64,000 nt of DNA from an uncultured Bacteroidales bacterium (GCA_963771005.1 CAVYRO010000003.1:868657-932656), one strand, 5' to 3'. Shown: positions 14,967 to 63,723, counted from the first letter of the stretch. Numbers and translations are program-made. Notes: a model not told the origin generated them from the sequence alone.

Positions 14967-15063
14967 TGATCTTTTCGATCGTACCGTTAAGAACAGGAGG
15001 GTCACATTATCTGTCGGTAAGGGAAAGGTTAGGCTTCGCTCACCGACCGGGGAACTGCCACAA

Positions 15064-15913
15064 GAATTTGTTGAGTTGTTGAGTTGTTGAGTTGTTGATT
15101 GAAGAGATTCTACGTAGTACTGAATTTGTTGAGTTGTTGAGTTGTTGAGTTGTTGATTGAAGAGATTCTACGTAGTACTGAATTTGTTGAGTTGTTGAGT
15201 TGTTGAGTTGTTGATTGAAGAGATTCTACGTAGTACTGAATTTGTTGAGTTGTTGAGTTGTTGAGTTGTTGATTGAAGAGATTCTACGTAGTACTGAATT
15301 TGTTGAGTTGTTGAGTTGTTGAGTTGTTGATTGAAGAGATTCTACGTAGTACTGAATTTGTTGAGTTGTTGAGTTGTTGAGTTGTTGATTGAAGAGATTC
15401 TACGTAGTACTGAATTTGTTGAGTTGTTGAGTTGTTGAGTTGTTGATTGAAGAGATTCTACGTAGTACTGAATTTGTTGAGTTGTTGAGTTGTTGAGTTG
15501 TTGATTGAAGAGATTCTACGTAGTACTGAATTTGTTGAGTTGTTGAGTTGTTGAGTTGTTGATTGAAGAGATTCTACGTAGTACTGAATTTGTTGAGTTG
15601 TTGAGTTGTTGAGTTGTTGATTGAAGAGATTCTACGTAGTACTGAATTTGTTGAGTTGTTGAGTTGTTGAGTTGTTGATTGAAGAGATTCTACGTAGTAC
15701 TGAATTTGTTGAGTTGTTGAGTTGTTGAGTTGTTGATTGAAGAGATTCTTACGTAGTCCTGAATTTGTTGAGTTGTTGATTTGTTGATTGAAGAGATCCT
15801 TACGTAGTCCTGAATTTGTTGAGTTGTTGATTTGTTGATTGAAGAGATTCTTACGTAGTCCTGAATTTGCTGAGTTGTTGATTTGTTGATTGAAGAGATT
15901 CTCACGTGGTCCT
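15064..15913. repeat. 58-bp minisatellite: 11 identical copies (15064-15701) plus 4 variant copies of 59, 51, 51 and 51 bp
   Basis: The unit is GAATTT(GTTGAGTT)3GTTGATTGAAGAGATTCTACGTAGTACT. Unit starts fall at 15064, 15122, 15180 ... 15644, a constant 58-bp phase visible as a 2-nt shift per 60-nt line. Later units change to ..CTTACGTAGTCCT and replace one GTTGAGTT with GTTGATTT. Confidence 0.95.
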
Positions 15914-16299
15914 GAATTTGTTAAGGCTGCGCTCACCGAGCGGGACCCTGACTTGAAATGAATTATGGTTCGGCTTCCCTCAACATTTCGGTAATCTTTG
16001 CATTGAAAAGTCATCATATTATAATCTGGTGAAGTCATACCTTCGTTTAAGCGCATAGTTTGGGCTTCTTCCTTTGTAATACGTCTTAGTATCAACTGGG
16101 ATCCACCCCCACCGTCGACGCCGACCGCCCTTAATGGGATTCACCCCCCAAATCTCAGCGTCCCCTTTTTGACTTTTTGATGAAAAGTTATCAACACTAC
16201 AGATTATCAGTACGTTGGATAACCCCGAACTCATTGTTTTGGTGATTTGGTGAAGTGGAAGAGGAACGCGGATTTGACGGAAAAATACGAATCCCGGAA

Positions 16300-16410
16300 G
16301 AATTTGTTGATTTGTTCGATTTGTTGCGTTGTTGATTGAAGAGATTCTTACGTAGTCCTGAATTTGTTGAGTTGTTGATTTGTTGATTGAAGAGATTCTC
16401 ACATGGTCCT
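16300..16410. repeat. Two further degenerate copies (60 and 51 bp) of the 58-bp unit, ending in the same junction as the main array
   Basis: The sequence reads GAATTTGTTGATTTGTTCGATTTGTTGCGTTGTTGATTGAAGAGATTCTTACGTAGTCCT followed by GAATTTGTTGAGTTGTTGATTTGTTGATTGAAGAGATTCTCACATGGTCCT. Both arrays terminate in GAATTTGTTAAGGCTGCG(C/T)TCACCG. Confidence 0.85.
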
Positions 16411-16448
16411 GAATTTGTTAAGGCTGCGTTCACCGGCCGGGGAACTGC

Positions 16449-16585
16449 CTTTAAATGAAGAACGGTTCGGCTACGCTCAGCGGCTGGCGTTCTATCTTTA
16501 AATGAGGAACGGTTCGGCTACGCTCAGCGGCTGGCGTTCTATCTTTAAATGAGGAACGGTTCGGCTACGCTCACCGACCGGGGGC
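16449..16585. repeat. 47-bp tandem repeat (about 2.9 copies) carrying the core GGTTCGGCTACGCTCA
   Basis: CTTTAAATGA(A/G)GAACGGTTCGGCTACGCTCAGCGGCTGGCGTTCTAT occurs at 16449 and 16496, with a partial copy at 16543. Related cores (GGCT[ATG]CGCTCA) occur at about 15034, 15925, 15978, 16425 and 16607. Confidence 0.85.
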
Positions 16586-16641
16586 CTACGATTAGTGAGG
16601 TATGTTTCGGCTACGCTCAACATTCAGGCACACGGTCCCGC

Positions 16642-17472
16642 TCAACTCCTCTTCACATGGCTGTACTTTATGATCGCCACGAATACGATGCCACCTATCG
16701 CATTCCCGATGGTCGCCCAGAACTGGAAACGGAGATATCCAGCGAAAGTTATGGACTTGCTGCAGAGCATCCCTGTGAAGACCTCAATGGATCCGACGAT
16801 GGAATGGTGCAGGCCTCCCAGGCCGATGAGAAAGGTCACCAGAATGATAATAAAGATACGGCTTATGGTATCCTGCGAGGAGGTAACCAGCCAGGAAAGG
16901 ATTCCCATGAGCCATCCGGCGCCGATACTGCTGCCCAGGATGACACTCCAGTTGTAATTTATCCTCGTCTGTGCCAGGAAGGTGAATGATTCCCTGCTGA
17001 CAGATTCCATGACGGGTGCAAAATCACCTACGACGAGGGCAAAGATATAGCCTCCCAGGAGATTACCTGCGTAGATGATGCCCCACAGGATGAGAAGATC
17101 CTTTACGCCGGCCGATCTGTTCAGGACGGGAAGTACGGCAAGCGTGGTATGTTCGGTGAATAGTTCGGAACGGCCCAGGGTCACAAAGATAAAGCCCACC
17201 GGGTAGGCCAGCGCCATCAGGAGCACAAGGTTCTGGGGGGAAACTACCCCGGCATACATGTGATGAAGGATCCCCATCAGGTAAACGCTGAAGCCTATCT
17301 CAAGTCCTGCAGCGAATGCCGAAAGCAGGAGCCCGAACTTCGATCGCCGGTATTCCCGCATACCCAGTTCGATCTCCTCCTTAAGGATCTCACCTTCCGT
17401 TTTTGGCTTCTGCATCTCTTCCCTGAGCGCATGTCCTTCTTCTTTCTTTACCAGGTTCCTGAATGATACCAT
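16642..17472 (-). CDS. Formate/nitrite transporter (FNT) family protein
   Basis: This 276-aa protein has about 6 TM segments. FNT-like motifs are TLGRSELFTEHT, IIYAGNLLGGY and ATIGNAIGG. Confidence 0.8.
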   Translation of the reverse strand: MVSFRNLVKKEEGHALREEMQKPKTEGEILKEEIELGMREYRRSKFGLLLSAFAAGLEIGFSVYLMGILHHMYAGVVSPQNLVLLMALAYPVGFIFVTLGRSELFTEHTTLAVLPVLNRSAGVKDLLILWGIIYAGNLLGGYIFALVVGDFAPVMESVSRESFTFLAQTRINYNWSVILGSSIGAGWLMGILSWLVTSSQDTISRIFIIILVTFLIGLGGLHHSIVGSIEVFTGMLCSKSITFAGYLRFQFWATIGNAIGGIVFVAIIKYSHVKRS

Positions 17473-17613
17473 GGGTTGCTTTTTTCATGTATTTGAAAAA
17501 CAATATTCCGTTCTTTCAGAAACAGTAAAACGAATTGGGTACGAAGAAGGTTTATGGGCCCGGGAGAATTGCGGATTCCGCGATCCGGAATCCCGTTTTT
17601 GGGGAAAAGTGAT

Positions 17614-18186
17614 TCAATCTGATTTCCTGATGTATGTCAGCCCGGTAACTCCGCACCGGAATTGCCGGGTTCCGGTAAGCCCAAGGTTCATTCGCTCCCG
17701 GATATTTTTAAACAGGGGTATACCCATTCCGAGGATCACCGGGTTGATATTGATCCTGTATTCGTCGATCAGGTCTGACTGGATAAGTGCATGGGTGACG
17801 GAAGCGCTGCCGATAAGCAGTATATCCCCGCCGTCTTCTTTCTTAAGGGCAGATACAACCCCGTCAATATTGCCGTCATAGAATACCGTATTATTCCAGT
17901 CGGAGGTCAATACCGTTTTGGAGAAAACCATTTTCCGGGCTTTGTTGACCCAGGCAGCATGTTCTTTATCATGCCGCGACGCGCCGGTACTTTCACCTGC
18001 GGTAGGCCAGTAGCTTTCCATCATCTGGAAGGTAATCCTTCCATAAATTACAGTGTCGGCTCCCTGCGTCAGGGATGATGAGTAATCACCCATCTCCTCA
18101 TCAAACAGGATCCAGTCCATTTCACCTGTTGGTCCTGCAATGAAACCATCCAGTGAGGTGTGCATAAGCAGCTTAAGTTTCTTCAT
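17614..18186 (-). CDS. Dihydrofolate-reductase-like protein (RibD C-terminal domain family)
   Basis: The N-terminus reads MKKLKLLMHTSLDGFIAGPTGEMDW. Further matches are ..VIYGRITFQMMESYWP.. and ..ILLIGSASVTHALIQSDLIDEYRININPVILG. Confidence 0.8.
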   Translation of the reverse strand: MKKLKLLMHTSLDGFIAGPTGEMDWILFDEEMGDYSSSLTQGADTVIYGRITFQMMESYWPTAGESTGASRHDKEHAAWVNKARKMVFSKTVLTSDWNNTVFYDGNIDGVVSALKKEDGGDILLIGSASVTHALIQSDLIDEYRININPVILGMGIPLFKNIRERMNLGLTGTRQFRCGVTGLTYIRKSD

Positions 18187-18197
18187 AATACTGTGTT

Positions 18198-18767: not shown

Positions 18768-18940
18768 GTCTGAGTTAAGAATTTGTTGATTTGTTGATTT
18801 ATTGATTTGTTGAATGAATTCGATCATCTCCTCAAAATATGTTTTTCTCCGGGTTTCCGGAAGAAATTGAGGATTTGATGAATAGCCGCTTGCATAGTAT
18901 TACATTCATCTCGTTCTAAAGTCCGGGCATACCAGGTGGA

Positions 18941-19514: not shown

Positions 19515-19692
19515 TGAAGAATTTGGAGTACTGTTTGAGATTGTTTGAGATTGTTTGAGATGGTTTGAAAGAAGAGGAACGCGGATTTGACGGATTTTGA
19601 CGGATTCCGGTAGCTATCGGAACGGATTTTGGATAGTTGACTCTTCATTCACCAAATCACCAAATCACCAAATATTCTTCATCCGCGTTCTA
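19515..19692. repeat. Mosaic intergenic repeat element (10-mer run, D module with hairpin, 8-mer run)
   Basis: The order is (TTGTTTGAGA)x3 plus TGGTTTGAAA, then GAAGAGGAACGCGGATTTGACGGATTTTGACGGA. Next comes the palindromic TTCCGGTAGCTATCGGAA, then (TCACCAAA)x3. The element closes with ATCCGCGTTC, the inverted complement of GAACGCGGAT. Confidence 0.85.
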
Positions 19693-21849
19693 TTCCCCTC
19701 TATAAACCTTCACTTCAATACCCGAAGGCCTCACCCTATCATGGTAAATGCGTTGGGTGGCGCGAATAAAATCCCCTTCACCGCAATGATAAATATCGGT
19801 AAACTGCTGTGGATTCCGGTCCACGAGCGGGAACCATGAATTCTGGACCTGTATCATGATCCTGTGTCCTTTCTGAAAACAATGCGCAATATCCGGCATC
19901 TCAAAGGATACCCGGGTCACCTCTCCCGGAGTAAAAGCTTCCGGTTTTTCATAGCTATTCCTGAATTTTCCGCGCATAACATCGCCCCTGATCAACATCT
20001 CGTAACCGCCCGAAGGGACCATGCCGTTTTCACCCGGCTTCATTCTCAGGTTCAGGGGGAAAGACGTCGATGAGCTTAACTACATAGTCTGCATCTGTCC
20101 CTGAAGTGCTAACATAAAGATCCACGTTGAGCGGACCCGTTAGCGTTAGGGATTTCGTGAGAGGCTGTGATTCATAGACCAATACGTCCGGCCTGCTGGA
20201 AGCAAATCTCTGGTCTGCAGTCATATAATCTGCTGTTCTTTTAAAATGGACGCCGGCAACATAAGGAACGGGATTTTCCGGATCAGAGACATATTCGTCA
20301 TAGCTTTCGGCAGAGTGGGGCGGTGTGAAGGAAAGACTTCCTCCGGGTTGAAGGTATAGAACAGAATCCGTCGTATTCCTGGGAGGCCATTCTGAGAAAG
20401 AATGCCAGTCGTTTGTCCCGCTTATAAAGACGGAAGCTTCCGGGAGATCCATTTTTCCTTCATCCTTCATGATAGAAGTTGAAGAATTTCATTTGCAGCT
20501 GGTTGAAATAATCCGTTGTATTCTCACCCCAGGAAACGTCGCCCAATTGCTCACCGGCACTCTTAGCCCACTGGTGATGAGACCATGGCCCCATTATGAG
20601 CCGGTTACTTTTCCCGGAGTTCTGGGACTCAATGGTTTTATAAGTCTGCAAAGTCCCAAACAAGTCCTCAGCATCATACCAGCCCCCGACAACAAGCACC
20701 GCAGGACGGAGATCACTGAGGTACCGCAGGGGATTTCTGGCTTTCCAGAATTCATCATAGACAGGATGATCCATCATCTCCGACCAGAACCGTACCGTAT
20801 CGCCGAAATATTTTTTCTCAGCGTTGCGGATGGGGCCCAGATCCAGGAAAAACCGGTAATTATCGCTGCTTTTGAACTCATATGTTCCAGGCCATTCCCG
20901 GATAAGACCGTGCCGGGGAATGCCAAAGGCCGAATAAAAGGAGAAGGCATCCGAAAGAAAGAAGGCCCCATGATGGTGCCAGTCGTCGCCCATGAACCAG
21001 TCGGTGACGGGAGCCTGTGGAGAGACGGCCTTCACTGCGGGATGTGCATCCGGCAGTGCCATGGTAGAGTAGAAACCCGGATAGGATACCCCCATGATTC
21101 CAACCCTGCCGTTATTATTTTTTACATTTTTTACCAGCCAGTCTACAGTGTCCCAGGTATCGCTGCTCTCATCCGTTTCCTTCCTCTTTTTCAGTTCGAT
21201 ATAAGGTCTGACATCCACGAAGGTTCCTTCACTCATGAACCTTCCTCGCACATCCTGCAAAACGATGATATATCCCTCCTCCAGGAAATGGGAATATTCG
21301 GAAAGCATACTCGAAAAGCCCGTTTCCGATGTTTCGATACGGTAAGGTGTACGGGTAAGGATTATGGGATAGTAATTCAAATTGCTTTTGGGGGAATAGA
21401 TGGAAGTATACAGACGGACTCCGTCTCTCATGGTGATGTAGACGTCCTTTTTGTCATACTGTGTCCTGATGAAAGTCGTATCCTTCCAGTCGACTGTAGA
21501 ATCCTGCCTTGTAAAATCGACTTTATATTTTACCCCGGACTGTGTCATACTACCGGTGATCAGGGCCGCTTTTTCTTCATACCGGCCCCTGTAGGTCAGC
21601 CCGCCCTGCCGCCAGAAAAAGTAAAACTGATTTCCGGTGAGGGAGATGCTGTCAAGTGAGATAGCATACGCATTCTGGTCCGGGCTGTCGAAATCACCTG
21701 AGAGCTTGTAGCCATCTGCCCGGATATGGAGGTTCAGGTGAAGTTCGGGACCCTTCAGGAGGGCATTCCAGTCGCCGGTTATGTCCTGCGCTGCGGCCGG
21801 GAATAGAATGAAGGCCAATAGAACCAGGAATATGAATGTTCTTTTTCAT
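19690..21849 (-). pseudogene. CocE/NonD-family (S15, X-Pro dipeptidyl-peptidase-like) hydrolase, interrupted by three frameshifts
   Basis: Three consecutive ORFs (20460..21818, 20030..20470, 19690..20043) together form one S15 protein, with nucleophile context GVSYPG and C-terminal domain MLIRGDVMRGKFRNS. The junctions are at about 20466 (FFNFY / KDEGK) and in a G5/C5 run at 20055-20059. The signal peptide MK(K)RTFIFLVLLAFILFPAAAQ is restored only if the T5/A5 run at 21842-21846 is shortened by 1 nt, starting from the ATG at 21849. Confidence 0.8.
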
Positions 21850-23583: not shown

Positions 23584-23820
23584 GGACGCGGTTTAATTGT
23601 ATGAAATGGTTTGAAATGGTTTGAAATGGTTTGAAATGGTTTGAAATGGTTTGAGGTTGTTTGAACTCAATTCACCAAATAGTCTTCATCCGTGATTATC
23701 CGCACAAATCCGTCAAATCCGTGTTCTTCTTCCTCTTCCTCCCCAACTTCACCAAATCACCAGATCACCAAATTCTTCGGGGAGTTTCACCACAGATTTC
23801 ACAGATTATCACAGATTAGC
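23584..23820. repeat. Mosaic intergenic repeat element between convergent genes
   Basis: The order is (ATGGTTTGAA)x5, then TCACCAAAT, then ATCCGTGATTATCCGCACAAATCCGTCAAATCCGTGTTC (D module, reverse orientation). It finishes with TCACCAAATCACCAGATCACCAAA and TTCACCACAGATTTCACAGATTATCACAGATTA. Confidence 0.85.
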
Positions 23821-31744: not shown

Positions 31745-32340
31745 ATGGAAACCGCTCCGCGGTTTATGGTTTATCCCGCCTCCTACTGCAGGTAGAATTT
31801 CAAAACCCCGACGTCTGTTTCATGGAACCAAATCCTGTCCGGATATATAAAATTTCTAAGATTAAACTCATTCCAGGGTTTTGAAATTCAACCTGCAGCT
31901 AATTAATGGGCACCGCTCCGCGGTGGGTTCAACCTGGGAATGAGATCCGACCTATGAATTAAATTTGCATTTTTTCCCTGATGAAACCCATTTATAGCAT
32001 GGGAACCGCTCCGCGGTTTATGGTCAACCCTGCGTCCTATGCAGGTAGAATTTCAAAACCCCGACGTCTGTTTCATGGAACCAAATCCTGTCCGGATATA
32101 TAAAATTTCTAAGATTAAACTCATTCCGGGTTTTGAAATTCAACCTGCAGCTAATTAATGGACACCGCTCCGCGGTGGGTTCAACCTGGGAATGAGATCC
32201 GACCTATGAATTAAATTTGCATTTTTTCCCGGATGAAACTCATTTATAGCATGGGAACCACTCCGCGATGGATTCAATCCCGCGAATGAAATCCATCGCA
32301 ACAATGGGTTTGCAATAACCGGGAATGAGATCCGAGTATG
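31745..32340. repeat. 252-254-bp tandem repeat, two near-identical copies plus a degenerate third; each full copy contains a 23-nt inverted repeat
   Basis: Unit starts (ATGG[GA]AACCGCTCCGCGGTTTATGG) are at 31745 and 31999, and in degenerate form at 32251. The arms CTGCAGGTAGAATTTCAAAACCC (31786-31808) and GGGTTTTGAAATTCAACCTGCAG (31876-31898) match at 22 of 23 positions. The same pair recurs at about 32040-32061 and 32128-32150. Confidence 0.9.
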
Positions 32341-32404
32341 AAATTGATTTGTATTTTATGTCATTCGAAGGAAGAACAGCCCGGAGGGCTGGCCATGTTT
32401 TAGC

Positions 32405-32476
32405 CATGGGTTGGAGCAACAGGCGGATAAATTCTGTGGAATGGCCATTTTTTTCGCCTGTTGCTCCTACCCATGG
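32405..32476. other. Long perfect-stem hairpin (21 of 22 bp stem, 28-nt loop) in a non-coding region
   Basis: CCATGGGTTGGAGCAACAGGCG (32405-32426) pairs with CGCCTGTTGCTCCTACCCATGG (32455-32476). The inner 13 bp are perfect. Confidence 0.8.
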
Positions 32477-32610
32477 TTGAACGCGGGAGTTGCCACTAAA
32501 CCATGGAGTGGTTTCCATTGTTCACTATAAGCAAACCATAGGAATTCGATTTCTTCATGGTTGATTCCAACCGTGGATTGTTCTGACTTAAAATTTAAAA
32601 CGAGCCGAAT

Positions 32611-33163
32611 ATGAGAAAAGTGATTATGCAGATGAATGTCTCACTGGATGGAGTTGCCGACCATAATGTGGCCATTGCCGACAATGAGTTGCATGACTTT
32701 GCAACGGAGCAACTCGAGGATACGGATCTCCTTCTGTTCGGAAAGGTAACGTATCTGCTTATGGAAAGTTACTGGCCCCATACACATGAAGATCCCGAGG
32801 CTACCCCGAGCATGGTGGAATTTGCACAGAAATTCAATGCCCTGCCCAAGATCGTATTTTCCCGGACCCTTAAGGAGGCTCGCTGGCAAAATTCACGGAT
32901 AGTCACAACTGATGCGGCTGAAGAAGTGCGCAAATTAAAACGGCAAGCTGGGGAAAAATATAGGTGTCGGCGGAATTGCTTTAAGCAGGGAATTGATGAA
33001 AGAGCGACTCATCGATGAATACATCATCCTTGTCCATCCTGTGATCTGGGGAGAAGGAAGGAAGTTATTTGATGGCTTGGAAGACAGGATAAATCTAAAT
33101 TTGATCAAAACACGGATTTTTAAATCGGGTGTAGTTGTTTTACGATACGAATCCAAGGGATGA
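32611..33163 (+). pseudogene. Dihydrofolate-reductase-like protein (RibD_C family), third paralog, frameshifted in the G4A5 run at 32950-32958
   Basis: ORF 32611..33018 reads MRKVIMQMNVSLDGVADH...EEVRKLKRQAG and then loses homology. The shifted frame continues KNIGVGGIALSRELMKERLIDEYIILVHPVIWGEGRKLFDG...VVLRYESKG*, with the stop at 33161-33163. Confidence 0.75.
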
Positions 33164-35721: not shown

Positions 35722-36258
35722 GAGCAGATTGTTTCAGGGGGAGTTTTACCACAGATACCACAGATTATCACGGATTAAGAGGGGTTGTTTCAGGTTGTTT
35801 CAGGTTGTTTCAGATTGTTTCAGATTGTTTCAGGTAGTTTCAATTCCATTCAACAAATCAACAAATCAACAAATCAATAAATCAACAAATTCTTCAGGTG
35901 GTTTCAGTGGGAGTTTTACCACAGATTTCACAGATTATCACAGATTAAGAAAGGTTGTTTCAGGTTGTTTCAACTCCATTCAACAAATCAACAAATCAAC
36001 AAATCAACAAATTTTTCGGGTGGTTTCAGTGGGAGTTTTACCACAGATTTCACAGATTATCACAGATTAAGAAAGGTTGTTTCAGGTTGTTTCAACTCCA
36101 TTCAACAAATCAACAAATCAACAAATTCTTCAGGTGGTTTCAGTGGGAGTTTTACCACAGATTTCACAGAATATCACAGATTAAGAAAGGTTGTTTCAGG
36201 TTGTTTCAACTCCATTCAACAAATCAACAAATCAACAAATCAACAAATTCTTCGGGTA
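35722..36258. repeat. Higher-order composite array: about 4.5 copies of a 114/122-bp unit built from the C, 10-mer and 8-mer modules
   Basis: The unit is TTCTTCAGGTGGTTTCAGTGGGAGTTTTACCACAGATTTCACAGATTATCACAGATTAAGAAAGGTTGTTTCAGGTTGTTTCAACTCCATTCAACAAA(TCAACAAA)n. Phase marks at 35890, 36012, 36126 and 36248 give periods of 122, 114 and 122 bp, depending on octamer count. The first unit carries (GTTGTTTCAG)x5. Confidence 0.9.
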
Positions 36259-36266
36259 CCTGGTAC

Positions 36267-37466
36267 TCATGGCTTCAGGTATTCATCGAAAAATGACAGG
36301 ATATACCCGGAAGTTATCTCAAGCTGGTATCGTCCGTCGATTTCCGGCATACCGGCCAGCCAAAACATTTTCTTGAGAATATGACTTTTTAGAAGGGCGC
36401 CGTCATCACTGAAACTAAAATGATTGGCGCCGGCGATGATAAAACGGTGTCTTGCTTCTGGGGGCATACGGTTGTAAACCGATAGAATATTGCTCCTGAT
36501 CGCACTGTCGGCTGCTGCCTGGCGTTTGTGGTCGCTCATAAGGAACATGAAAGGTTTGTGGATACCTTCCCTGATGACATTTCCGTATAAAGCTCCGTCA
36601 ATATCGATGCCTGCATGGATCATGGAATTCGAGGAGACGCTTTGGGCTGCCACCGCTCCCCCGAGTGAGTGGCCAAAGATCCCGATCCTGTTCATATCGA
36701 GCCTGTCGCGGAATCTTCCTGTTGGTGAATCATTCAATATACCCAGTCTTTGAATAACAAATCCCACATCATCACTCCAGGCGGACAGGAGTTTCTGAAC
36801 GACCTTCTCCTGTTCGATACCTGAAAAAATTTCAGGATCATTTTCGGGGGTGCGGTTGTATACTCGCCCGTCGGGAAAAACAACGACCCTGGTCCGGTAA
36901 GGTGCATCGAAACCGGCCACGATATAACCATGACTGGCAAGATCAGCAGCGAGAGCGGAGTATCCGAGTGTCAGCGAGGAAAGGCCCGCTCTCATGATGA
37001 CGACCGGGTATGACCTTCGCTCCCTCGATAGTTCTGCATTGCTGTAAACAGGAGCCCTGACCCTGGAGAGATCGCGTGTCAGAAAGTGACTGATGAGGGG
37101 TCCGCGTACTTTTTCAACCGCCTTTCTCCAGGAAACGGGCATGTAGTCCTCTTTTTCGCCCGGATCATCTTCCGAAGCGGGATACCATACCCATACTACC
37201 ACCTTGCGTATTTCGTCTTTTTCCGGTGCCAACATGTCAGATTGACCGGTATCCGCCCATGCATAGCTTACCCGCCCGACATGGTAGGGTCCTGAAGGTT
37301 CCGGAAGATTCATTGGCATTTTATGCTCGAACCATAAGAGGAGGAGGCCGGTTCCCGCTCCTGCCAGGACAATCAGCGCCAGAATGGTAAATCCATGGAT
37401 TAGACGGAACAGCATCCTTAGAATCCATGGCCTTGTAGCATGGGATGAATCCGGTTTTCCTGTCAT
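36267..37466 (-). CDS. Alpha/beta hydrolase with an N-terminal membrane anchor (PAF-acetylhydrolase or dienelactone-hydrolase-like)
   Basis: The nucleophile elbow is GHSLGG. The N-terminal TM segment is ILALIVLAGAGTGLLLLW. Confidence 0.7.
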   Translation of the reverse strand: MTGKPDSSHATRPWILRMLFRLIHGFTILALIVLAGAGTGLLLLWFEHKMPMNLPEPSGPYHVGRVSYAWADTGQSDMLAPEKDEIRKVVVWVWYPASEDDPGEKEDYMPVSWRKAVEKVRGPLISHFLTRDLSRVRAPVYSNAELSRERRSYPVVIMRAGLSSLTLGYSALAADLASHGYIVAGFDAPYRTRVVVFPDGRVYNRTPENDPEIFSGIEQEKVVQKLLSAWSDDVGFVIQRLGILNDSPTGRFRDRLDMNRIGIFGHSLGGAVAAQSVSSNSMIHAGIDIDGALYGNVIREGIHKPFMFLMSDHKRQAAADSAIRSNILSVYNRMPPEARHRFIIAGANHFSFSDDGALLKSHILKKMFWLAGMPEIDGRYQLEITSGYILSFFDEYLKP

Positions 37467-37648
37467 TGAAATATTTTTCCCGGTTGAAAGACCGGTGTTT
37501 ATCCTAAGTAAAACAACCGCCAGGCGAAAAATGATTTTATTAAACCTGAAACATAAGTCTGAAGATTAAATTCATTTTTCAAACTTACTACCCTGCCGGA
37601 TGTTTATTCCATTCAATAAATCAACAAATAACAAATCAACCAATAATT

Positions 37649-39439: not shown

Positions 39440-40166
39440 ATGAACCTATCCGGAAATAAAATTCTGATCACCGGGGGAGCCTCAGGCATTGGCCTGGGCC
39501 TGGCGGAAAAATTCATTGGCGAGGGAAATTCGGTCATAATTTGCGGTCGGCGCGAGCCGGCGCTTGATGAGGCATCGGCGTTGTTTCCACCGGTAATTAC
39601 GCGCAAATGTGACCTGTTGGTGCAGGCCGAGCGCGAGGCATTGTTCAACTGGATATCCGATGAGCACAGCGATGTCAATGTCCTGGTTAATAATGCAGGT
39701 ATACAGCAACGGATGGGGATCCATGATGAAAATTTTTTCCCGCGGGCAAAAGAGGAAATACGGATTAATGTTGAAGCCCAGGTCCATTTGATCTCTCTTT
39801 TCCTGGGGTTGAAGTCGTTGGATACGATCCTCAATGTGACTTCCGGGCTCGCATTTGTTCCCATGACCCATGCTGCAGTTTACTCTGCCACAAAAGCCTT
39901 CTTCCATTCCTTTCACGGTTTCCCTCAGGGAGATCGTCAGGCAGGATAACATAGAGGTGATCGAGATCATTCCCCCGGCAGTGAATACGGATCTCGGGGG
40001 GAAGGGCGTGCATAGCAATGCCACCCCTGTCGGTGAATTTGCCGAAGCAGTTCTAAGTCAGCTCAGGCAGGGGAAGACAGAGATCACTTATGGTTTCACG
40101 GAAGGCATGCCGGCGTCTTCTCCTGATGATTTGGAGAAAATATTCAGGAGGATGAACGGAATTTAG
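39440..40166 (+). pseudogene. SDR-family oxidoreductase, frameshifted at the T3 run 39911-39913
   Basis: The cofactor motif is ILITGGASGIGLGLA and the active-site motif is YSATKAF. ORF 39440..39949 reads ..ATKAFFHSF and ORF 39870..40166 continues TVSLREIVRQDNIEVIEIIPPAVNTDLGG in another frame. Confidence 0.85.
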
Positions 40167-40520
40167 GTGTTGTTTGAAATGGTTTGAAATGGTTTGAAAG
40201 AAGAGGAACGCGGATTTGACGGATGTTGACGGATCTCACGGATTTTGGATAGTTGACTCTTCATTCACCAAATCACCAAATTCTCCGAGTTTACCACAGA
40301 TTTCACAGATTATCACGATACCGTGATTATCCGCACAAATCCGTCAATCCGTTTCCTCTCCACTTCACCAAATCACCACTTCACCAAATCACCAAATCAC
40401 CAAATTTCCGGGAGTTTCACCACAGATTTCACAATTATCACAGAAATTGTTTCAGTTGGTTTGAACTCCATTCAACAACTCAACAACTCAACAAATTCTT
40501 ACCAGATCCGTGTTCAGAGT
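40167..40520. repeat. Mosaic intergenic repeat element showing the full module grammar, including D and inverted D modules
   Basis: The order is (GGTTTGAAAT)n; GAAGAGGAACGCGGATTTGACGGATGTTGACGGAT; then (TCACCAAA)n; then ACCACAGATTTCACAGATTATCAC. Next comes the inverted D module (CCGTGATTATCCGCACAAATCCGTCAATCCGTTTCCTCTCC); then (TCACCAAA)n; CACCACAGATTTCACAATTATCACAG; and TTGTTTCAGTTGGTTTGAACTCCAT. The element ends with (TCAACAAC)n and ATCCGTGTTC. Confidence 0.85.
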
Positions 40521-41875: not shown

Positions 41876-42005
41876 GGCTTTTTTTTTGGTGACCTGGTAT
41901 TACCGGGTGACTTTAAATCGGTACGAATGTACTACAATGTAACAAGCTCTTCAATCAACAAATCAAAAAATTCTTCAGGTGACGGTGCGTGTGGTCTTCT
42001 TGCCC

Positions 42006-42137
42006 GGGCGTAACCTTACCATGGGCATAACCTTACCATGGGCGTAACCTAACCACAGGCATAACCTACCACGGGCGTTACCTAACCACGGGCGTAACCT
42101 TACCACGGGCGTAACCTTACCACGGGCGTAACCGTGG
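42006..42137. repeat. 17-bp tandem repeat, about 7.8 copies
   Basis: The unit GGGCGTAACCTTACCAC and variants start at 42006, 42023, 42040, 42058, 42073, 42090, 42107 and 42124. The array is preceded at 41950-41985 by TCAACAAATCAAAAAATTCTTCAGGTG, the 8-mer/junction motif of the main family. Confidence 0.9.
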
Positions 42138-42627
42138 CTAATACAATGAAACCCCTCCGGGGTGCCGGGAACACGATCATCATATATTATGCGCGTGACC
42201 TTACCTCGGGAGTAACCATGAGTAATACAATTAAACCGCCTCCGGGGTGCCGGGAACACGATCATCGTATACAATGGACGTTTTGGTGGGTAATACAATT
42301 AAATCGCCTCCGGGGTGCCGGGAACACGATTATCATATATTATGCGCGTGACCTTACCACGGGAGTAACCATGAGTAATACAATTAAACCGCCTCCAGGG
42401 TGCCGGGACCACGATCATCGTATACAATGGACGTTATGGTGGGTAATACAATTAAATCGCCTCCGGAGTGCTGGGACACGATCATCGTATATTATGTGCG
42501 TGACCTTATCACGGGCGTAACCATGAGTAATACAATTAAACCACCTCCGGGGTGCCGGGACCATGATCATCGTATACAATGGACGTTATGGTGGGTAATA
42601 CAATTAAATCACCTCCTGTGGCAGATC
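42138..42627. repeat. 152-153-bp tandem repeat, about 3.2 copies, each made of two related half-units
   Basis: Both half-units begin TAATACAATTAAA(C/T)CGCCTCCGGGGTGCCGGGAACACGAT. Half H1 ends CAATGGACGTT(T/A)TGGTGGG, and half H2 ends TTATGCGCGTGACCTTACCACGGGAGTAACCATGAG. Phase marks are at 42221, 42374 and 42526. Confidence 0.9.
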
Positions 42628-42711
42628 TTCTCTTCCCTTTTTACTTTTTACTTTTTACTTTTGCCTTGGATTTTCTTCCCTCGGCGGGGTTTCAGATCCC
42701 TGAAACAATCT

Positions 42712-45789: not shown

Positions 45790-46334
45790 TTAGCTGGTTT
45801 CACCGGTCCCGGCCAGTTTCTGCACCGTTCTCCAGTTCCGGGTAGTGGCGGTAACATGGAGTCTGGATTCGAAAAAGGTATTATTTAGTTTAGTCCTGCC
45901 ATACCCGTTTGGGCAATGGAGGAATATTTCCCTTCCCATAATCCGGAATTCATCAGGAAGAAAATTCCTTTCTTCCAGGGATTTCACATTTTTTTCTTCC
46001 GGGATGTCAGAAAGGAAGGTAACATGGAGTTTTTCGGGGGAAGCATTCCCGTCCTGCAGAAAAGGGTTGTCTTCAAGTATTTTATGCAGAGCGGCATTAC
46101 TGCGGATAATGAACAGGGACATTTACCCCGAACCGGCTCCTGATAAGATCTCCGATCCGCCGGCTTGCTTTTCCGGGATCTTCACGCGGAAGTGAAAATG
46201 ATGTTCCCGCTCTGGATATACGTTCTGACATTGCCGAATCCTTCCTCTTCCATGGCGGTTCTGAGTCCGGCCATATTGACGGGATTCTTTCCGCCTACGT
46301 TAATTCCCCTGAGAATGGCAGCAAATGTTTCCAT
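45790..46334 (-). pseudogene. DUF1697-family protein, interrupted by two frameshifts (about 46183-46190 and 46112-46120)
   Basis: The ATG at 46332-46334 gives METFAAILRGINVGGKNPVNMAGLRTAMEEEGFGNVRTYIQSGNIIFTSA*. A second frame gives REDPGKASRRIGDLIRSRFGVNVPV. The third frame (ORF 45790..46122) gives IIRSNAALHKILEDNPF...GRTKLNNTFFESRLHVTATTRNWRTV. Confidence 0.75.
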
Positions 46335-51881: not shown

Positions 51882-52476
51882 AATGTAGAACACGGATCCG
51901 GAAGAATTTGTTGATTTGTTGATTTGTTGATTTGTTGAATGGAGTTGAAACCACGTGAAACCATCTTTCTTAATCTGTGATAATCTGTGCAATCTGTGGT
52001 TAAACTCCCCGAGGAATTTGGTGATTTGTTGATTTGTTGATTTGTTGAATGGAGTTGAAACCACGTGAAACCATCTTTCTTAATCTGTGATAATCTGTGC
52101 AATCTGTGGTTAAACTCCCCGAGGAATTTGGTGATTTGTTGATTTGTTGATTTGTTGAATGGAGTTGAAACCACGTGAAACCATCTTTCTTAATCTGTGA
52201 TAATCTGTGCAATCTGTGGTTAAACTCCCCGAGGAATTTGGTGATTTGTTGATTTGTTGATTTGTTGAATGGAGTTGAAACCACGTGAAACCATCTTTCT
52301 TAATCTGTGATAATCTGTGCAATCTGTGGTTAAACTCCCCGAGGAATTTGGTGATTTGTTGATTTGTTGATTTGTTGAATGGAGTTGAAACAACCTGAAA
52401 CAATCCGAAAGAAGAGGGAACACGGATTTGACGGATTCCGATAGCCATATAGCCATCGGAATTCGTGTTCTACATT
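51882..52476. repeat. Higher-order array: 4 full copies plus 1 partial copy of a 110-bp unit, the reverse complement of the 35722-36258 unit type, bounded by imperfect 19-bp inverted repeats
   Basis: GAATTTG phase marks fall at 51904, 52014, 52124, 52234 and 52344, exactly 110 bp apart, and copies 2-4 are identical. The left flank is AATGTAGAACACGGATCCG (51882-51900). The reverse complement of the right flank (52458-52476) is AATGTAGAACACGAATTCC, matching at 16 of 19 positions with the first 13 perfect. Confidence 0.9.
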
Positions 52477-55833: not shown

Positions 55834-55931
55834 TAAAAAGCAGGTATCATTTCTGCATAAGAAGTAAAAACCGGTATGGACATGTACGTATAACATTGCC
55901 CATACCGGTTTTTTGTACAACAGAATGATTA

Positions 55932-59392: not shown

Positions 59393-59560
59393 TTATTCTT
59401 CCGAAAATGCAGATAAACATTCCGGGCAAAGGCAGTCGTCATACCTGTCCATGATCACGATCATTTCCTTCTTGTGGATCCGGGCAGATTCACACCAGCA
59501 ATCGTTTTCTCCTTCACAGATGAAGTGTTTCGCACAGGAAGGGCATAATTTTTCACTCAT
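59393..59560 (-). CDS. Cysteine-rich CWC-family small protein (55 aa), below the ORF-track cutoff
   Basis: Hand translation gives MSEKLCPSCAKHFICEGENDCWCESARIHKKEMIVIMDRYDDCLCPECLSAFSEE*. Its ATG (59558-59560) overlaps the folB stop (59553-55) in the sequence ATGAGTGA. Confidence 0.7.
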   Translation of the reverse strand: MSEKLCPSCAKHFICEGENDCWCESARIHKKEMIVIMDRYDDCLCPECLSAFSEE

Positions 59561-59915: not shown

Positions 59916-60221
59916 GATCAAAGCTTTGTGTGCAAAGATAACGAAAAGATCCGGTGAATTGTTGATCGGGTTTAGGTTGTTTATCTGGTAAAGCGTGGGT
60001 TGCACAATGACCTGGATCTTGTTCTTCCTGAAAGTTAAGGAGCTTTGAAATTTAATTCCATTTTTTAAGTCGTTTTTTTATATAAATCATTCTATTTTTG
60101 CAGAAAAAAAGGGAATGCATGGTTTCAGGGTCTGTTCTCCCGTTTTTTGGCCCTGCTGCCGGTTCTCAAGTCACTGGCTCCCTCCAATCTCATTGAAATA
60201 AGAACATTCACAACTAATAAT

Positions 60222-61922
60222 ATGCAATCAGAAGAAGCCGGATCAGAAAAGAAAGGTTTGAATTTTGTCGAATCCATTGTCGAAGAAGATCTGCAAACGG
60301 GCAGAAACGGCAAAAAAGTACATACCCGTTTCCCGCCCGAGCCCAACGGATACCTTCATATCGGGCATGCAAAAGCCATCTGTATTGATTTCGGAATAGC
60401 AGAGAAGTATGGTGGGATCACTAACCTGCGTTTTGATGATACCAACCCGGAAAAGGAGGATATTGAGTATGTGGATTCGATAAAGGAGGATATCCGATGG
60501 CTGGGGTTTGACTGGGACGACCGTGAATATTATGCATCCGATTATTTCGGGCAGCTCTACGAATGGGCGGTTATGATGATCAAACAGGGAAAAGCCTACG
60601 TGGATGATCAGAGCGCGGAAGACATATCCCTGCAGAAGGGCACACCAACTGTTCCGGGTAAAATCAGTCCGAACAGGGACCGGCCCGTTGAGGAAAGCCT
60701 CAATCTTTTTGAAAGGATGAAAACCGGTGAGTTCGTTGAAGGAACGCACGTGCTCAGGGCCAGGATAGATATGGCTTCCCCGAATATGCACTTACGCGAT
60801 CCCATTATGTACCGGATCATGCGGAAACCCCATCAAAGGACCGGTAACGAATGGTGTATTTACCCGATGTACGACTATGCACACGGACAGAGTGATTACA
60901 TCGAAGGCATAACTCATTCAATATGCACCCTTGAATTTGAGGTTCACCGGCCGCTCTACGACTGGTTTCTCGACCAGGTGACGAAACCGGGTAAGGTAAG
61001 GCCCAGGCAGATTGAATTCGCCCGGCTTAACCTGAGCTATACCATTATGAGCAAGCGCAAACTCCTTGAACTGGTGCAGGAATGCCTGGTAAACGGCTGG
61101 GATGATCCGCGGATGCCCACCATTTCCGGACTGAGACGCAGGGGATACACGCCAGGATCGATCCGGGATTTTGCCGAACGGATAGGGGTGACCAAGGTCG
61201 ATAGTGTCATTGATGTGGGTTTACTGGAGCATTCGGTTCGTGAAGATCTGAACCGGACGGCTGCCAGGGTGATGGCTGTGCTCCACCCGGTTAAGGTGGT
61301 CATCACCAATTACCCTGAAGATATGGAAGAAGAACTTGAAACGGTAAATAATCCGGAGGATGAATCGATGGGCTCCCGGACCATCCCTTTCAGCCGTGAG
61401 ATCTTTATTGAGGAGGATGATTTTATGGAAGATCCTCCCGGTAAATATTTCAGGCTTGCACCAGGACGGGAGGTGAGGTTGAAATCCGCATATATTATAC
61501 GGTGTGAAAAGGCCGTTAAGGATGCGGAGGGTCATATCACGGGGCTCCTGTGTACTTATGATCCTGAAACAAAGAGCGGCGCACCTGCGGCTAATCGCAA
61601 GGTAAAGGGAACGCTCCACTGGGTCTCGGCGCGTCACGCCGTGAAGGCTGAGGTCAGGCTGTATGACCGGCTGTTCCATGACCCGGAACCGGATAATCAT
61701 AAGGATATCGATTTTAAGGAGTTCCTGAATTCCGATTCCCTGGAGATTCTTACAGGATGTTATGTAGAACCGGGATTGAAAAATGCCGAACCTCTTACAC
61801 ATTACCAGTTTCAGCGGCTGGGTTACTTCAATGTCGATCCGGACTCTGTCCCGGGAAAACCGGTTTTCAACCGGACAGTGCCACTGCGGGAAACCTGGAC
61901 AAAGGTGGCAGGGAAGGAGTGA
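60222..61922 (+). CDS. glnS: Glutamine--tRNA ligase
   Basis: The HIGH region is [18 protein letters not shown]. Other matches are [11 protein letters not shown] and a KMSKS-type IMSKRKL. The start is taken at [11 protein letters not shown] (60222). Confidence 0.95.
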
Positions 61923-62003
61923 AGATAATATTGAAAAGGAGATATATCTGACGAATGCGAACAGGTTTTACCTCCTTTCATTCTGAACCTAAGGAAAATT
62001 GCT

Positions 62004-62681
62004 TTGATCACACTGGCAGACAGGATCATCACTTTCAACGAAAACCTGGAATTCAGCGCCACACTGCCCCCGGGTGTTGAGGTCATGAATCCGTTCAGGG
62101 ATGCGACGGTGCGGCGGGTATCAGCGGAATTCTACCGTAAGTTTTTTTCAGATAATCATCCGAGACGCCTCATACTCGGCATCAATCCCGGACGTTTCGG
62201 TGCCGGGGTTACGGGTATTCCTTTCACCGACCCGGTTAAACTCCTTGAATACTGTGGTATTGCGAATCCTTTTGCAGCGAAAACGGAGGCTTCGGCCGGA
62301 TTCATCTATGAGATGATCACCGCCCGGGGCGGACCGGAAAAATTTTACCGCGAATTTTTGATCAGCGCTGTAAGCCCGCTGGGTTTCGTCAGGGACGGAC
62401 TGAATCATAATTATTACGACTCCGCAGAGTTACTGCATCTCACCGAACCCTTCATTATTTCGACACTCCGGGAAACCCTTGAATGGAGTATCGACCGGCG
62501 GTTTTGTTTCTGCCTCGGGAACGGCCGCAATTACGATTTTCTGAATAAGCTGAATTCCAGGATGGCCTTTTTCGGGGAGATCGTTCCCCTTCCGCATCCC
62601 CGGTGGGTGGTGCAATACCGGCGGAAAAAAATGCAGGAATTCGTGCGGGTGTACCTGGATGCTTTCGAAAAATACGGTTAG
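62004..62681 (+). CDS. Uracil-DNA glycosylase superfamily protein (DUF4918/SMUG2-like)
   Basis: It has a TTG start. LILGINPGRFGAGVTGIPFTDP resembles the UDG-superfamily motif-1 region of DUF4918 proteins, from memory. Confidence 0.55.
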   Translation: MITLADRIITFNENLEFSATLPPGVEVMNPFRDATVRRVSAEFYRKFFSDNHPRRLILGINPGRFGAGVTGIPFTDPVKLLEYCGIANPFAAKTEASAGFIYEMITARGGPEKFYREFLISAVSPLGFVRDGLNHNYYDSAELLHLTEPFIISTLRETLEWSIDRRFCFCLGNGRNYDFLNKLNSRMAFFGEIVPLPHPRWVVQYRRKKMQEFVRVYLDAFEKYG

Positions 62682-62945
62682 TTTCCGGAATGAACCTGGT
62701 TTTTTCAACGAAGATCCCGCCCCCGGTATTCTCATGTTGTTGGCAGTTCTTTGGCATCCCGATGGGTACCTTTCGCAGCCGGCTGACCGGTGTCCTCCTG
62801 TCTCGACGCTTATTTTTGAACGTAGAGATGATAAGGCTGTATGCCTGACGTTTGCCTGATTCCGTTCTTGCAGACAATCAGCTTTCGAACATTTCGGCTC
62901 GTTATATGTCCTATTTACCCGGTAAGGATCAAAAGATTATCAACC

Positions 62946-63329
62946 ATGAGTACCAACCTGCATCAAAACAGGCAAAATGCAATCGCCTATTACAAGACAG
63001 CCTTTGAGGGAGACCCTAGAAAGGCTGTCGAACTCTATGTCGGGAATGAATATACCCAGCATAATCCGGCGGTGGCTAACGGAACAGAAGCCTTCATTGA
63101 CTATTTTGAACGGATGGCGAGGGAATACCCCGGAAAAACTATCCAATTTGTGCGGTCGGTTGCCGAGGATGATCTTGTTGCGCTTCATACACACCAGGTA
63201 TGGCCCGGCGATGAGGAATATGTCACCATCGATTTTTTCAGGTTCGACGACGACGGCAAGATCGTTGAACATTGGGATGCCGTTCAGAAGATCCCGGGGG
63301 AGTCGGTGAACGGGAATACGATGTATTGA
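62946..63329 (+). CDS. SnoaL-like / NTF2-family protein
   Basis: The sequence is MSTNLHQNRQNAIAYYKTAFEGDPRKAVELYVGNEYTQHNP...FRFDDDGKIVEHWD. The ORF-track start at 62841 is upstream and implausible. Confidence 0.75.
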   Translation: MSTNLHQNRQNAIAYYKTAFEGDPRKAVELYVGNEYTQHNPAVANGTEAFIDYFERMAREYPGKTIQFVRSVAEDDLVALHTHQVWPGDEEYVTIDFFRFDDDGKIVEHWDAVQKIPGESVNGNTMY

Positions 63330-63340
63330 GATCGTTATAG

Positions 63341-63723
63341 AATGGTTTCGGGTTGTTTGAAATGGTTTGAGGATTGTTTGAAATGGTTTGAAATGGTTTG
63401 AGGTGGTTTGAAATGGTTTCAGGGAGTTTAACCACAGATTTCACAGATTATCACAGATTAGGAAGAAGAATATTTTCCAGATTGTTTCAGATTGGTTTGA
63501 GGATTGTTTGAAATGGTTTGAAATGGTTTCAGGTGGTTTCAACTCCATTCACCAAATCACCAGATTCACCAAATTCTTCCGAGATCCATGTTCTTTCCTC
63601 TTCCACTTCACCAAATCACCAGATCACCAAATCACCAAATATTCTTCATCCGTGATTATCCGCACAAATCCGTCAAATCCGTGTTCCTCTTCCTCTTCCT
63701 TTTCCACTTCACCAAATCACCAC
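63341..63723. repeat. Mosaic intergenic repeat element (10-mer runs, C module, two inverted D modules, 8-mer runs)
   Basis: It contains (GGTTTGAAAT)-type runs, GGGAGTTTAACCACAGATTTCACAGATTATCACAGATTA and TTGTTTCAG runs. AACTCCATTCACCAAATCACC follows. ATCCGTGATTATCCGCACAAATCCGTCAAATCCGTGTTCCTCTTCC also occurs at 23690-23735, identical except for one C/T difference in the trailing CTCTTC/TTCTTC. Confidence 0.85.

Follow-up and report, generated by a model that had tools for sequence, protein, structure and literature searches.

REP units are palindromic sequences of ~35 bp that alternate in orientation, carry GTAG and pair with RAYT transposases, and the pneumococcal BOX element folds into a stable RNA. 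Tandem heptamers (STRR) were reportedly described from cyanobacteria by Mazel et al. in 1990, and Elhai et al. are said to have found, in 2008, dispersed repeats of ~25 nt that lie inside tandem heptamers and MITEs of Nostocales and are shared among genomes. The TMV omega sequence is a CAA-rich, unstructured translational leader. The GxxExxY proteins, which we take to be TIGR04256 and PD-(D/E)XK-like, reportedly have relatives encoded inside 23S rRNA intervening sequences; GxxExxY cassettes are not known to be mobile. BrickBuilt, of Porphyromonas gingivalis, is a MITE with an internal minisatellite (PMC4596501). TAACTGA heptamers are intergenic, are distributed patchily across phyla including Bacteroidetes and lie mostly a few nucleotides 5′ of gene starts in the forward orientation (PMC4679880).

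Here we show that ten intergenic regions within 64,000 nucleotides of an uncultured Bacteroidales genome (the window; positions count from its first letter) all carry tandem and dispersed repeats built from common modules, and we suggest, with a probability of roughly one in two, that they form one lineage-specific, non-coding mosaic family of gene-less, MITE-like derivatives of GxxExxY-type cassettes that was amplified locally. The family words are 8–30 bases long (TCAMCAAA, GTTTSARRTK, the CACAGATT triplet and the CGGATTTGA/GAACRCGGAT module), and the modules are termed H8, F10, C and D. Matches in the window number 65 for the H8 16-mer, 19 for the F10 20-mer, 10 for the C 27-mer and 6 for the D 19-mer, against 0.01, 0.01, 0 and 0.03 expected from dinucleotide shuffles, and every one of them is confined to the following regions.

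Region A, 15031..16625, minus strand: between convergent LytTR regulator and FNT transporter genes; minisatellite at 15064-15924 (~15 units of 58/51 bp, each H8 ×3-4 plus the palindromic module AGTACTACGTAGAATCTCTTCAA), another short array at 16302-16419, an H8′ pair at 16238-16253 and a D copy at 16264-16282 (plus strand).
Region B, 18776..18813, minus strand: solo H8 run ×4, sense, stopping 5 nt 5′ of the true ATG (18770) of a RibD_C-domain gene.
Region C, 19515..19692, plus strand: F10 ×3.7, D (GAACGCGGATTTGACGGAT...), a small hairpin, H8′ ×3, ATTCTTC and a terminal D′-type end ATCCGCGTTCTATTCC.
Region D, 23584..23820, plus strand: between convergent genes; F10 ×6, H8′, inverted D, H8′ ×3, TTCTTCGGG, C.
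Region E, 35722..36258, plus strand: between convergent LigB and PAF-AH-like genes; four C-F10-AACTCCAT-H8-TTCTTCAGG units (170/122/114 bp) that make up a higher-order array.
Region F, 37600..37646, plus strand: solo H8 run, sense, of four units in the window, stopping 3 nt before the ATG (37650) of an alpha-amylase gene.
Region G, 40167..40520, plus strand: between convergent genes; F10, D, H8′, C abutting inverted D, H8′, C, F10, H8; D/D′ arms at 40216-40234 and 40329-40347, predicted to form a long hairpin on either strand (z about -3.4).
Region H, 41950..41985, plus strand: short solo H8 run with an TTCTTCAGG junction, antisense to both flanking genes.
Region I, 51882..52476, minus strand: between co-directional Usp and DoxX-like genes; 4.6 units of 110 bp (C-F10-J1-H8), the family sequence beginning 10 nt past the Usp stop codon; bounded by 21-nt inverted repeats (86%) at 51882-51902 and 52456-52476.
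Region J, 63341..63723, plus strand: downstream of a SnoaL-like gene; F10 ×7, C, F10 ×5, AACTCCAT, H8′, a short D′-like piece, H8′ ×4, inverted D, H8′.

Both orientations occur, regions A, B and I being on the opposite strand. Family sequence amounts to 4.0 kb; adding the arrays at 31745 and 42006 brings the total to 5.2 kb, in agreement with the ~5 kb given in an earlier reading of the sequence alone. That sequence-only reading had the family filling most intergenic gaps, which was an overstatement: 10 of the 35 gaps (those of at least 30 bp after 14.9 kb) are occupied, and the first 15 kb of the window hold no copy. Its placement of the repeats between convergent gene ends or just 5′ of starts is supported, as is its description of a dispersed, modular, non-coding and non-autonomous family with a grammar. 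No coding potential was found in the family regions of the window, and no ORF of at least 100 aa in the window carries a transposase or integrase Pfam domain. The repeats do mislead ORF callers, as had been proposed: the N-terminal extensions at 18827 (from region B) and 37600 are false. One strand was also said to be nearly free of G; this holds for the H8 runs and the region A array (0–6% G) but not for the composite regions (14–24% G). Region A includes ~500 bp of non-family sequence and a separate 47-bp ×2.7 repeat at 16449-16573, and region H adjoins an unrelated 17/153-bp array at 42005-42616. The PAF-AH-like gene between regions E and F is an accessory gene without a close orthologue; homologues of it, sought as a route to orthologous spacers, reach 53% at best. 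CRISPR arrays were rejected, since the repeats extend over entire units with no unique spacers between them, and coding, origin/iteron and centromere readings were ruled out by anatomy (ten loci, no spacers, no ORFs). A tRNA search found nothing, and a literature search for the module strings gave no match.

The modules are joined at the fixed junctions that had been described (AACTCCAT, TTCTTCRGG and AAGAAAG). The order F10-D-H8-C-D′-H8-C-F10-H8, put forward as recurrent, is found only in region G; the order that does recur is a cycle, C - F10 - AACTCCAT - H8 - TTCTTCRGG - C. F10, H8 and C repeat directly and lack dyad symmetry, and D is found in both orientations, giving inverted pairs; the C copies of the window are all direct and inside arrays, with no inverted pairs among them. 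Units are near-identical within one array and the arrays differ among themselves: the complete units of region I match one another at 100%, and units of E and I match at ~84%, with a 12-nt indel. A common GATT core for all words was considered and abandoned after many other words were found. Inverted repeats at the outer ends were found in region I only; region G has an internal D/D′ pair (19 nt, 79%), and regions C, D and J showed no clear repeats at their termini. At neither end of region I is a direct duplication of the target-site type evident, and the empty sites in relatives are too diverged for alignment.

Compared with the systems described, the family resembles E. coli BIME/REP and BOX in being an intergenic mosaic of few modules, variable in copy number and often at gene 3′ ends. 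The BOX/BIME likeness drawn in the sequence-only reading is fair as an analogy; unlike REP and BOX, most window modules are short-period direct repeats that do not fold, and no Y1 transposase domain of the RAYT type was found among the window ORFs. With BrickBuilt it shares a Bacteroidales host, a strictly intergenic position, multiple copies, lack of coding capacity and a tandem array held between leader and tail parts; the small inverted ends of BrickBuilt may have a counterpart in the inverted repeats of region I. Judged by description, BrickBuilt differs in having one 23-nt unit where the window family has at least four word types in a higher-order cycle, and in having promoter activity where the window family shows no promoter consensus. 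In its small size, absence of coding, multiple copies, intergenic position and presence/absence polymorphism the family conforms to MITEs. H8, and no other module, behaves like the TAACTGA/STRR-type 5′-leader repeats as a short intergenic tandem word, patchily spread over phyla and lying in forward orientation just before starts; it differs in being an octamer and in that the words are joined into fixed composite units and minisatellites. The behaviour of module C recalls the small dispersed repeats of Nostocales, which belong to a different phylum and have different sequences, with no known mechanism in either case.

The composite family is lineage-specific. Five relatives were compared (GlnS 80–82% identical), and in ~105 kb of their syntenic DNA the composite family is absent and no F10, C or D was found, whereas H8 occurs in one of the five, at a different spacer. 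The orthologous spacers being empty in these relatives, a conserved role at given genes is not borne out. The individual words, on the other hand, are common to several lineages and phyla, which had been missed before. Exact matches to module C were found at 43 loci in GTDB genomes, all intergenic and spanning four phyla, often as an inverted pair or within an element of ~150 bp with inverted ends; exact sharing of the 27-mer, which is three 8-mers, can partly be convergent. No plasmid or phage sequence matched region G in BLAST, and the composite junction pattern had 0 matches in viral contigs.

The words bracket GxxExxY nuclease-like genes in other bacteria, and the repeats consequently look like gene-less remnants of mobile elements. 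C-, D- and H8-type words flank GxxExxY mini-genes in 12 of the 14 loci examined, usually as inverted triplets of 25–30 nt. All six GxxExxY genes in the fetched loci are word-bracketed, five by inverted C triplets and one by H8/F10-like words; the loci tying C to GxxExxY carry an ascertainment bias, the C word having served to find them. Among GxxExxY genes picked by protein similarity only, flank repeats scored 11–26 in six of eight, compared with a 99th percentile of 10 and a maximum of 12 in 330 control flank pairs; this unbiased sample has words other than C, and F10 in no case. The Treponema flank ACACGGATTCG/CGAATCCGTGT matches the D/TIR type of the window. GxxExxY cassettes have flank word types that are the same as modules C, D and H8, whereas the window elements are gene-less and their C copies direct. 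No GxxExxY gene was found in the window (tblastn) or in the 105 kb of the relatives, and we therefore read the elements as gene-less derivatives rather than as members of the cassette class. Nor were GxxExxY relatives found in the viral contigs or the phage collection.

We suggest that the elements may be gene-less, MITE-like ‘orphan ends’ of small putative GxxExxY cassettes, that they would insert or recombine beside one another in intergenic DNA, and that replication slippage or unequal crossing-over could then generate local higher-order tandem arrays, any trans-acting protein presumably being encoded elsewhere in the genome. As a side effect, an H8 run landing just 5′ of a start codon would supply a G-free, structure-free, CAA-rich leader suited to Shine–Dalgarno-independent initiation in Bacteroidia, and its length could vary by slippage. 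More tentatively, with perhaps a lesser chance of being right than wrong by some way, the word triplets (CACAGATT, ACGGATT, ACAAATC and lineage-specific equivalents) may be the functional ends of undescribed cross-phylum mini-cassettes of ~0.5 kb that carry a GxxExxY gene of the PD-(D/E)XK fold, these ends serving either as mobility termini or, as in 23S rRNA intervening sequences, as stems in RNA; the window arrays would then be their non-autonomous offspring, amplified into higher-order satellite DNA.

H8 runs are preferentially 5′ leaders, an observation that the sequence-only reading did not make. In metagenome arrays of (TCAACAAA)n, an ORF start lies within 20 nt in the sense direction in 21 of 91 cases and in 2 of 89 in the mirrored direction (p=2e-5), with no SD-like motif in any H8 array before an ORF start; moreover, H8 ends 3–5 nt before an ATG in regions B and F and in one relative (L047). 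Free of G and rich in CAA, the H8 run, (UCAACAAA)n, may, where it stands directly before AUG, be likened in function to TMV omega. Initiation in Bacteroidia needs low structure and upstream A's (PMC6847099). Our best reading makes the octamer run an unstructured translation leader, whether functional or tolerated. It seems to us improbable that the family owes its retention chiefly to use as a tunable device for translation or expression, with H8 copy number setting expression in a manner resembling phase variation and the larger arrays acting as reservoirs. The strong sense bias beside start codons, the three leader cases, the precedent of the TAACTGA repeats (PMC4679880) and the difference between two datasets in region F (3 versus 4 units) speak for it, but leaders occur in only two of the ten regions, most family DNA lies in gaps between convergent genes, ~75% of the metagenome arrays are not beside a start codon, and 3 versus 4 units could reflect long-read indel error.

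We consider it just as improbable that the arrays are selected RNA-level cis-elements at gene ends, with H8, poor in G, unstructured and containing C, as Rho loading (rut) sites and D/D′ stem-loops as 3′-end stabilizers or terminators. H8 runs, at 0–6% G, cannot fold, and their strand is sense to a neighbouring gene in eight of ten regions; further, a D/D′ stem-loop (52431-52466, -28 kcal/mol, z -2.8) with a 12-bp perfect stem lies just 3′ of the Usp stop, and the D′-type end of region C overlaps the stop codon of the PepX fragment gene. Orientation is uninformative, however, where gene pairs converge, and in regions C and H it is antisense with respect to either neighbour; D′ on its own does not fold, the elements are missing from the orthologous spacers of relatives, and an array of 14 identical units goes far beyond a terminator's need. 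Shuffled sequences fold as well as the array units (z -0.6 and +1.1), and Rfam gave no match at the gathering threshold or at E<=1. Intrinsic termination, considered earlier, is not supported: there is no enrichment of terminator-like sites, and no family module coincides with one. Promoter activity is not supported either, neither sigma-70-type nor Bacteroidetes TTTG...TAnnTTTG sites being enriched.

We argue against DNA-structural elements, in which phased 10-bp repeats bend DNA or bind a nucleoid protein, or act as recombination hot spots. Of the proposed phased, intrinsically curved DNA, the exact 10-bp period of F10 and C stands, whereas T3-G-A3 is predicted to be almost straight: under a wedge model, with approximate parameters and controls behaving as expected, GGTTTGAAAT and module C have end-to-end/contour ratios of 0.98–0.99 versus 0.43–0.47 for A-tract controls, and real F10 segments fall in the 4th–34th percentile of window pieces. 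Regions E and F do flank an accessory gene for which other phyla supply the closest relatives (53%), but predicted curvature is unexceptional, the H8 period is 8 bp and there is no known binding protein. Still less probable is an invertible, phase-variable segment in region I: its 21-nt inverted repeats lie upstream of a gene, but the window has no recombinase, the segment no promoter consensus and the other regions no such flanks.

An assembly or sequencing artefact of the long-read metagenome contig is very nearly negligible, for although several split genes suggest indel errors and the family is limited to one lineage, the same words are present in isolate genomes and two short-read contigs with identical flanks, from another run (ERR11594398), enter the repeats, one ending within the H8 run of region E and the second breaking in the D hairpin. 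The repeats are real, and the two datasets of the same organism differ in copy number, region F having three H8 units in the short-read contig and four in the window.

Finally, considering what a mosaic family of gene-less, putatively cassette-derived elements means for the Bacteroidota, repeats of this kind break short-read assemblies of MAGs and give rise to false ORFs and false N-terminal extensions in them. As leads, octamer runs may be copy-number-variable, Shine–Dalgarno-independent translation leaders, and the link of the words to the abundant, uncharacterized GxxExxY mini-genes could indicate a small cassette of a new kind, either mobile or engaged in RNA processing. The family shows that satellite arrays of higher order, made from words that recur across lineages and phyla, can exist in the intergenic DNA of bacteria.

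Tandem Repeats Finder and direct reading located repeats at all ten intergenic regions for which the sequence-only reading had claimed them, and the family that they form is non-coding, modular, intergenic and lineage-specific. Its regions, with the strand on which H8 (the octamer-run module) reads TCAMCAAA, and the other repeats of the window are:

Region A, 15031-16625, minus
Region B, 18776-18813, minus
Region C, 19515-19692, plus
Region D, 23584-23820, plus
Region E, 35722-36258, plus
Region F, 37600-37646, plus
Region G, 40167-40520, plus
Region H, 41950-41985, plus
Region I, 51882-52476, minus
Region J, 63341-63723, plus
31745-32267, 252-bp unit x2.1, containing ACCGCTCCGCGGT-type palindromes
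32399-32481, inverted repeat after the 252-bp array (33-nt arms, 85% complementary, 17-nt loop)
42005-42662, second repeat family, 17-bp unit CGGGCGTAACCTTACCA x7.6, then 153-bp unit x3.2
42637, (CTTTTTA)x3.7, after the 153-bp units

All matches in the window to H8 (16-mer; 65 versus 0.01 expected), F10, the 10-bp-period module (20-mer; 19 versus 0.01), module C, a 27-mer triplet (10 versus 0), and module D, a 19-mer (6 versus 0.03), are confined to the ten regions. Together the regions span 4.0 kb, and adding the unrelated arrays at 31745 and 42006 brings the figure to 5.2 kb, in keeping with the roughly 5 kb first estimated, but the family does not fill most intergenic gaps as had been supposed, being found in 10 of the 35 gaps of at least 30 bp after 14.9 kb and in none before. 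Similarly, one strand is nearly G-free only in H8 runs and the array of region A (0-6% G); in composite regions the same strand has 14-24% G.

With each region oriented so that H8 reads TCAMCAAA and then tokenised into modules, the cyclic unit is C - AAGAAAG - F10(n) - GTTTC-AACTCCAT - H8(n) - TTCTTCRGG - (TGGTTTCAGTG)GGAGTTTNAC - C. The longer formula originally proposed fits region G and no other, the general order being the cycle C-F10-H8-C; the occurrence of both orientations (A, B and I versus the others) stands. Module D (GAACRCGGATTTGACGGAT) likewise has copies in each orientation and is found as inverted pairs, one of which lies inside region G at 40216/40329, and the whole 595-bp element of region I is bounded by 21-nt inverted repeats. 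In region A the partner module is instead AGTACTACGTAGAATCTCTTCAA, and the unit, 58 bp long, is repeated ~15 times. Since solo H8 runs retain pieces of the composite junctions (..CAT-H8-TTCTT..), we assign them to the same family. The arrays are internally homogenised, and because the units of region I are mutually 100% identical, whereas those of E and I share ~84% identity and differ by a 12-nt indel, the sequences indicate that local amplification was recent. A dispersed motif, GGCTWCGCTCASCGRCYGG, has 6 copies in region A (15029-15056, 15923-15950, 16412-16630), including a 47-bp x2.7 tandem at 16449-16573, and flanks the octamer arrays of that region on both sides.

The repeats are not an assembly artefact, since two independent short-read (Logan) contigs of run ERR11594398, which encode the Usp and PAF-AH-like proteins at 100% identity, reach into them: the Usp contig breaks within the D hairpin of region I and the other ends within region E, in its terminal H8 run. 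Unit number differs between datasets of the same organism, region F, which this second contig also spans, having 3 octamer units there and 4 in the window. The genes flanking the repeat regions are ordinary chromosomal genes. A SusC/SusD pair lies in the window, whose named relatives are Bacteroidales, and its genes yielded no transposase or integrase domain, in agreement with the earlier statement. Split or truncated genes (8723-10514, 13091-14184, 19690-21818, 32611-33018, 39440-40166, 45790-46122), namely DUF6057 (two ORFs), a histidine kinase, the X-Pro dipeptidyl peptidase PepX (three ORFs), a truncated RibD_C, an SDR and a DUF1697 fragment, reflect either pseudogenes or homopolymer indels introduced in error by long-read assembly. 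Regions E and F lie at the two borders of the PAF-AH/dienelactone-hydrolase-like gene (36267-37466), which is without a close orthologue (next best matches ~53% identity; those named are from Bryobacteraceae of the Acidobacteriota, Dyella, Verrucomicrobiota and Actinomycetota) and was probably acquired horizontally.

Presence or absence differs at orthologous spacers between related species. No F10, C or D was found in ~105 kb of syntenic DNA from five relatives (GlnS 80-82% identical). At one relative's locus, L047, (TCAACAAA)x6.5 stops 5 nt short of the UDG gene's ATG, and (AGTTAGGA)x10, 100% identical, begins 8 nt past the glnS stop (11745-11825); neither the window nor the other relatives have the latter array, their spacer there being a plain 80-120 bp, and the region I spacer is empty in L047. 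Because the five relatives are without F10, C and D and the spacers differ, the composite is lineage-specific and its sites are unconserved. The second repeat family extends to relatives, being related to a 1.4-kb array of 112-bp units at another relative's locus (L045, 5395-6774) and to a CCATGGTTTTGCCCATGG hairpin in L047 (11955-11985); the 252-bp array and the 33-nt-arm inverted repeat are unrelated to the main family.

Unlike the composite, its words are not confined to one lineage. Exact copies of the module C 27-mer lie at 43 loci in GTDB representative genomes, among them Bacteroidota (including Flavobacterium isolates, Bacteroides, Prevotella and Chitinophaga) and Verrucomicrobiota, Planctomycetota and Chloroflexota MAGs; all copies are intergenic, and many form inverted pairs or lie within a ~150-bp element with inverted ends. 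In nine IMG/VR contigs C again forms inverted pairs or lies in inverted-end elements, and on one viral contig a D...D' pair (D' being inverted D) has the terminus found at window 19683, ATCCGCGTTCTATTCC. Moreover, a second, Lentimicrobium-like lineage of Bacteroidia has a comparable mosaic, ..TGTTTCAAAGGCTCAAYACC-(TCAACAAA)n-CCACAGATTACAGATCACAGAT.., between convergent genes. At least five contigs of the Bacteroidota MAG JANNWM01 (L001, L016, L022, L030, L032) have a ~150-bp element with 14-nt inverted ends, ATGGCTSTRGTCTA, in which module C is accompanied by one inverted C word. A 3.0-Mb Verrucomicrobiae contig (L008, 2300-4100) bears a 126-bp higher-order array of at least 12 units with C and CGCAGATCGCACAGATCG words, followed by an array of C-like words in opposite orientation; here a different phylum has a satellite of the same type.

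Five C-bearing loci encode a 124-aa GxxExxY protein (TIGR04256, E 1e-37 to 1e-44), and in all five, inverted C triplets lie on both sides of the gene (5' CACAGATTTCACAGATTATCACAGATT ... 3' AATCTGTGATAATCTGTGAAATCTGTG). For the four loci in Flavobacteriaceae, the arm outside the search key still matches at 24-26 of 27 positions, although the proteins are only 63-81% identical; in this family different genera share the order map - C - GxxExxY - C' in synteny. A sixth, distant homologue (L159) has H8/F10-like words on both sides. Since C-keyed loci carry ascertainment bias, we took eight GxxExxY genes found by tblastn alone in PLSDB replicons of six phyla, and in six of these the flanks hold inverted or direct repeats with scores of 11-26, against a 99th percentile of 10 and maxima of 12 and 11 for 330 control flank pairs. 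The flank words vary by lineage (CACAGAGG, CACAGAGA, CTTCAGTCC, ACACGGATTCG, AATCCGTG, ACAAATC), ACACGGATTCG being of the window's D/TIR type and ACAAATC H8-like. In total, 12 of 14 GxxExxY loci (L003, L010, L015, L018, L031, L159, L182-L189), from at least six phyla, are bracketed by word repeats of 11-30 nt, inverted or direct, an arrangement of which we found no description in the searchable literature. No GxxExxY gene was found in the window or the relatives' DNA. We regard the sharing of words between phyla, like the link to GxxExxY genes, as a lead to be tested.

H8 runs favour the position immediately 5' of start codons. Many metagenome contigs carry (TCAACAAA)n arrays of n>=3 (at least 120 loci) and, among the matches listed and with redundancy removed, a long ATG-started ORF lies in sense within 20 nt downstream of 21/91 arrays versus 2/89 mirrored (Fisher p=2e-5), and an ORF start within 40 nt of 29/91 versus 4/87. 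None of the 21 leader-positioned arrays has an SD-like tetramer. We suggest that AUG-adjacent H8 would act as, or be tolerated as, an unstructured CAA-rich leader, a reading that fits SD-independent initiation in Bacteroidia, where mRNA structure and the nucleotides upstream do the tuning (PMC6847099). Some metagenome arrays (L067, L073, L081, L125) adjoin tRNA-gene-like sequences, as judged by eye.

Other proposed roles fared less well. Sigma-70-type promoters, the Bacteroidetes promoter consensus and intrinsic terminators are not enriched, the last arguing against the suggested termination role, and the family has no Rfam match even at E<=1. C-F10-H8 units fold no better than shuffles; the D/D' stem beside Usp folds (z -2.8), as does region G (z -3.4), and since G folds equally on both strands its signal is a DNA-level inverted repeat. 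Intrinsic curvature of F10 and C, also put forward, is not supported by a Bolshoy-Trifonov wedge model (controls right: A5N5 curved, T4A4 straight), which predicts nearly straight DNA for GGTTTGAAAT and module C and finds real F10 segments unexceptional.

The described systems that come closest in type are the BrickBuilt element of P. gingivalis (PMC4596501) and the BIME and BOX elements; H8 has its closest described counterparts in the TAACTGA and STRR tandem words (PMC4679880). On testing, the family belongs to none of the REP/BIME, BOX/Rfam, CRISPR, terminator or curved-DNA classes. It agrees only partly with MITEs, inverted ends occurring in one or two regions only and target duplication not being definable. 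The module strings are absent from the literature searched. The family is real, and moderately interesting in itself, more so through its word sharing and the GxxExxY link. We suggest that its elements would be gene-less, MITE-like derivatives of GxxExxY-type word-bracketed mini-cassettes, stacked beside one another and expanded through slippage or unequal crossing-over.
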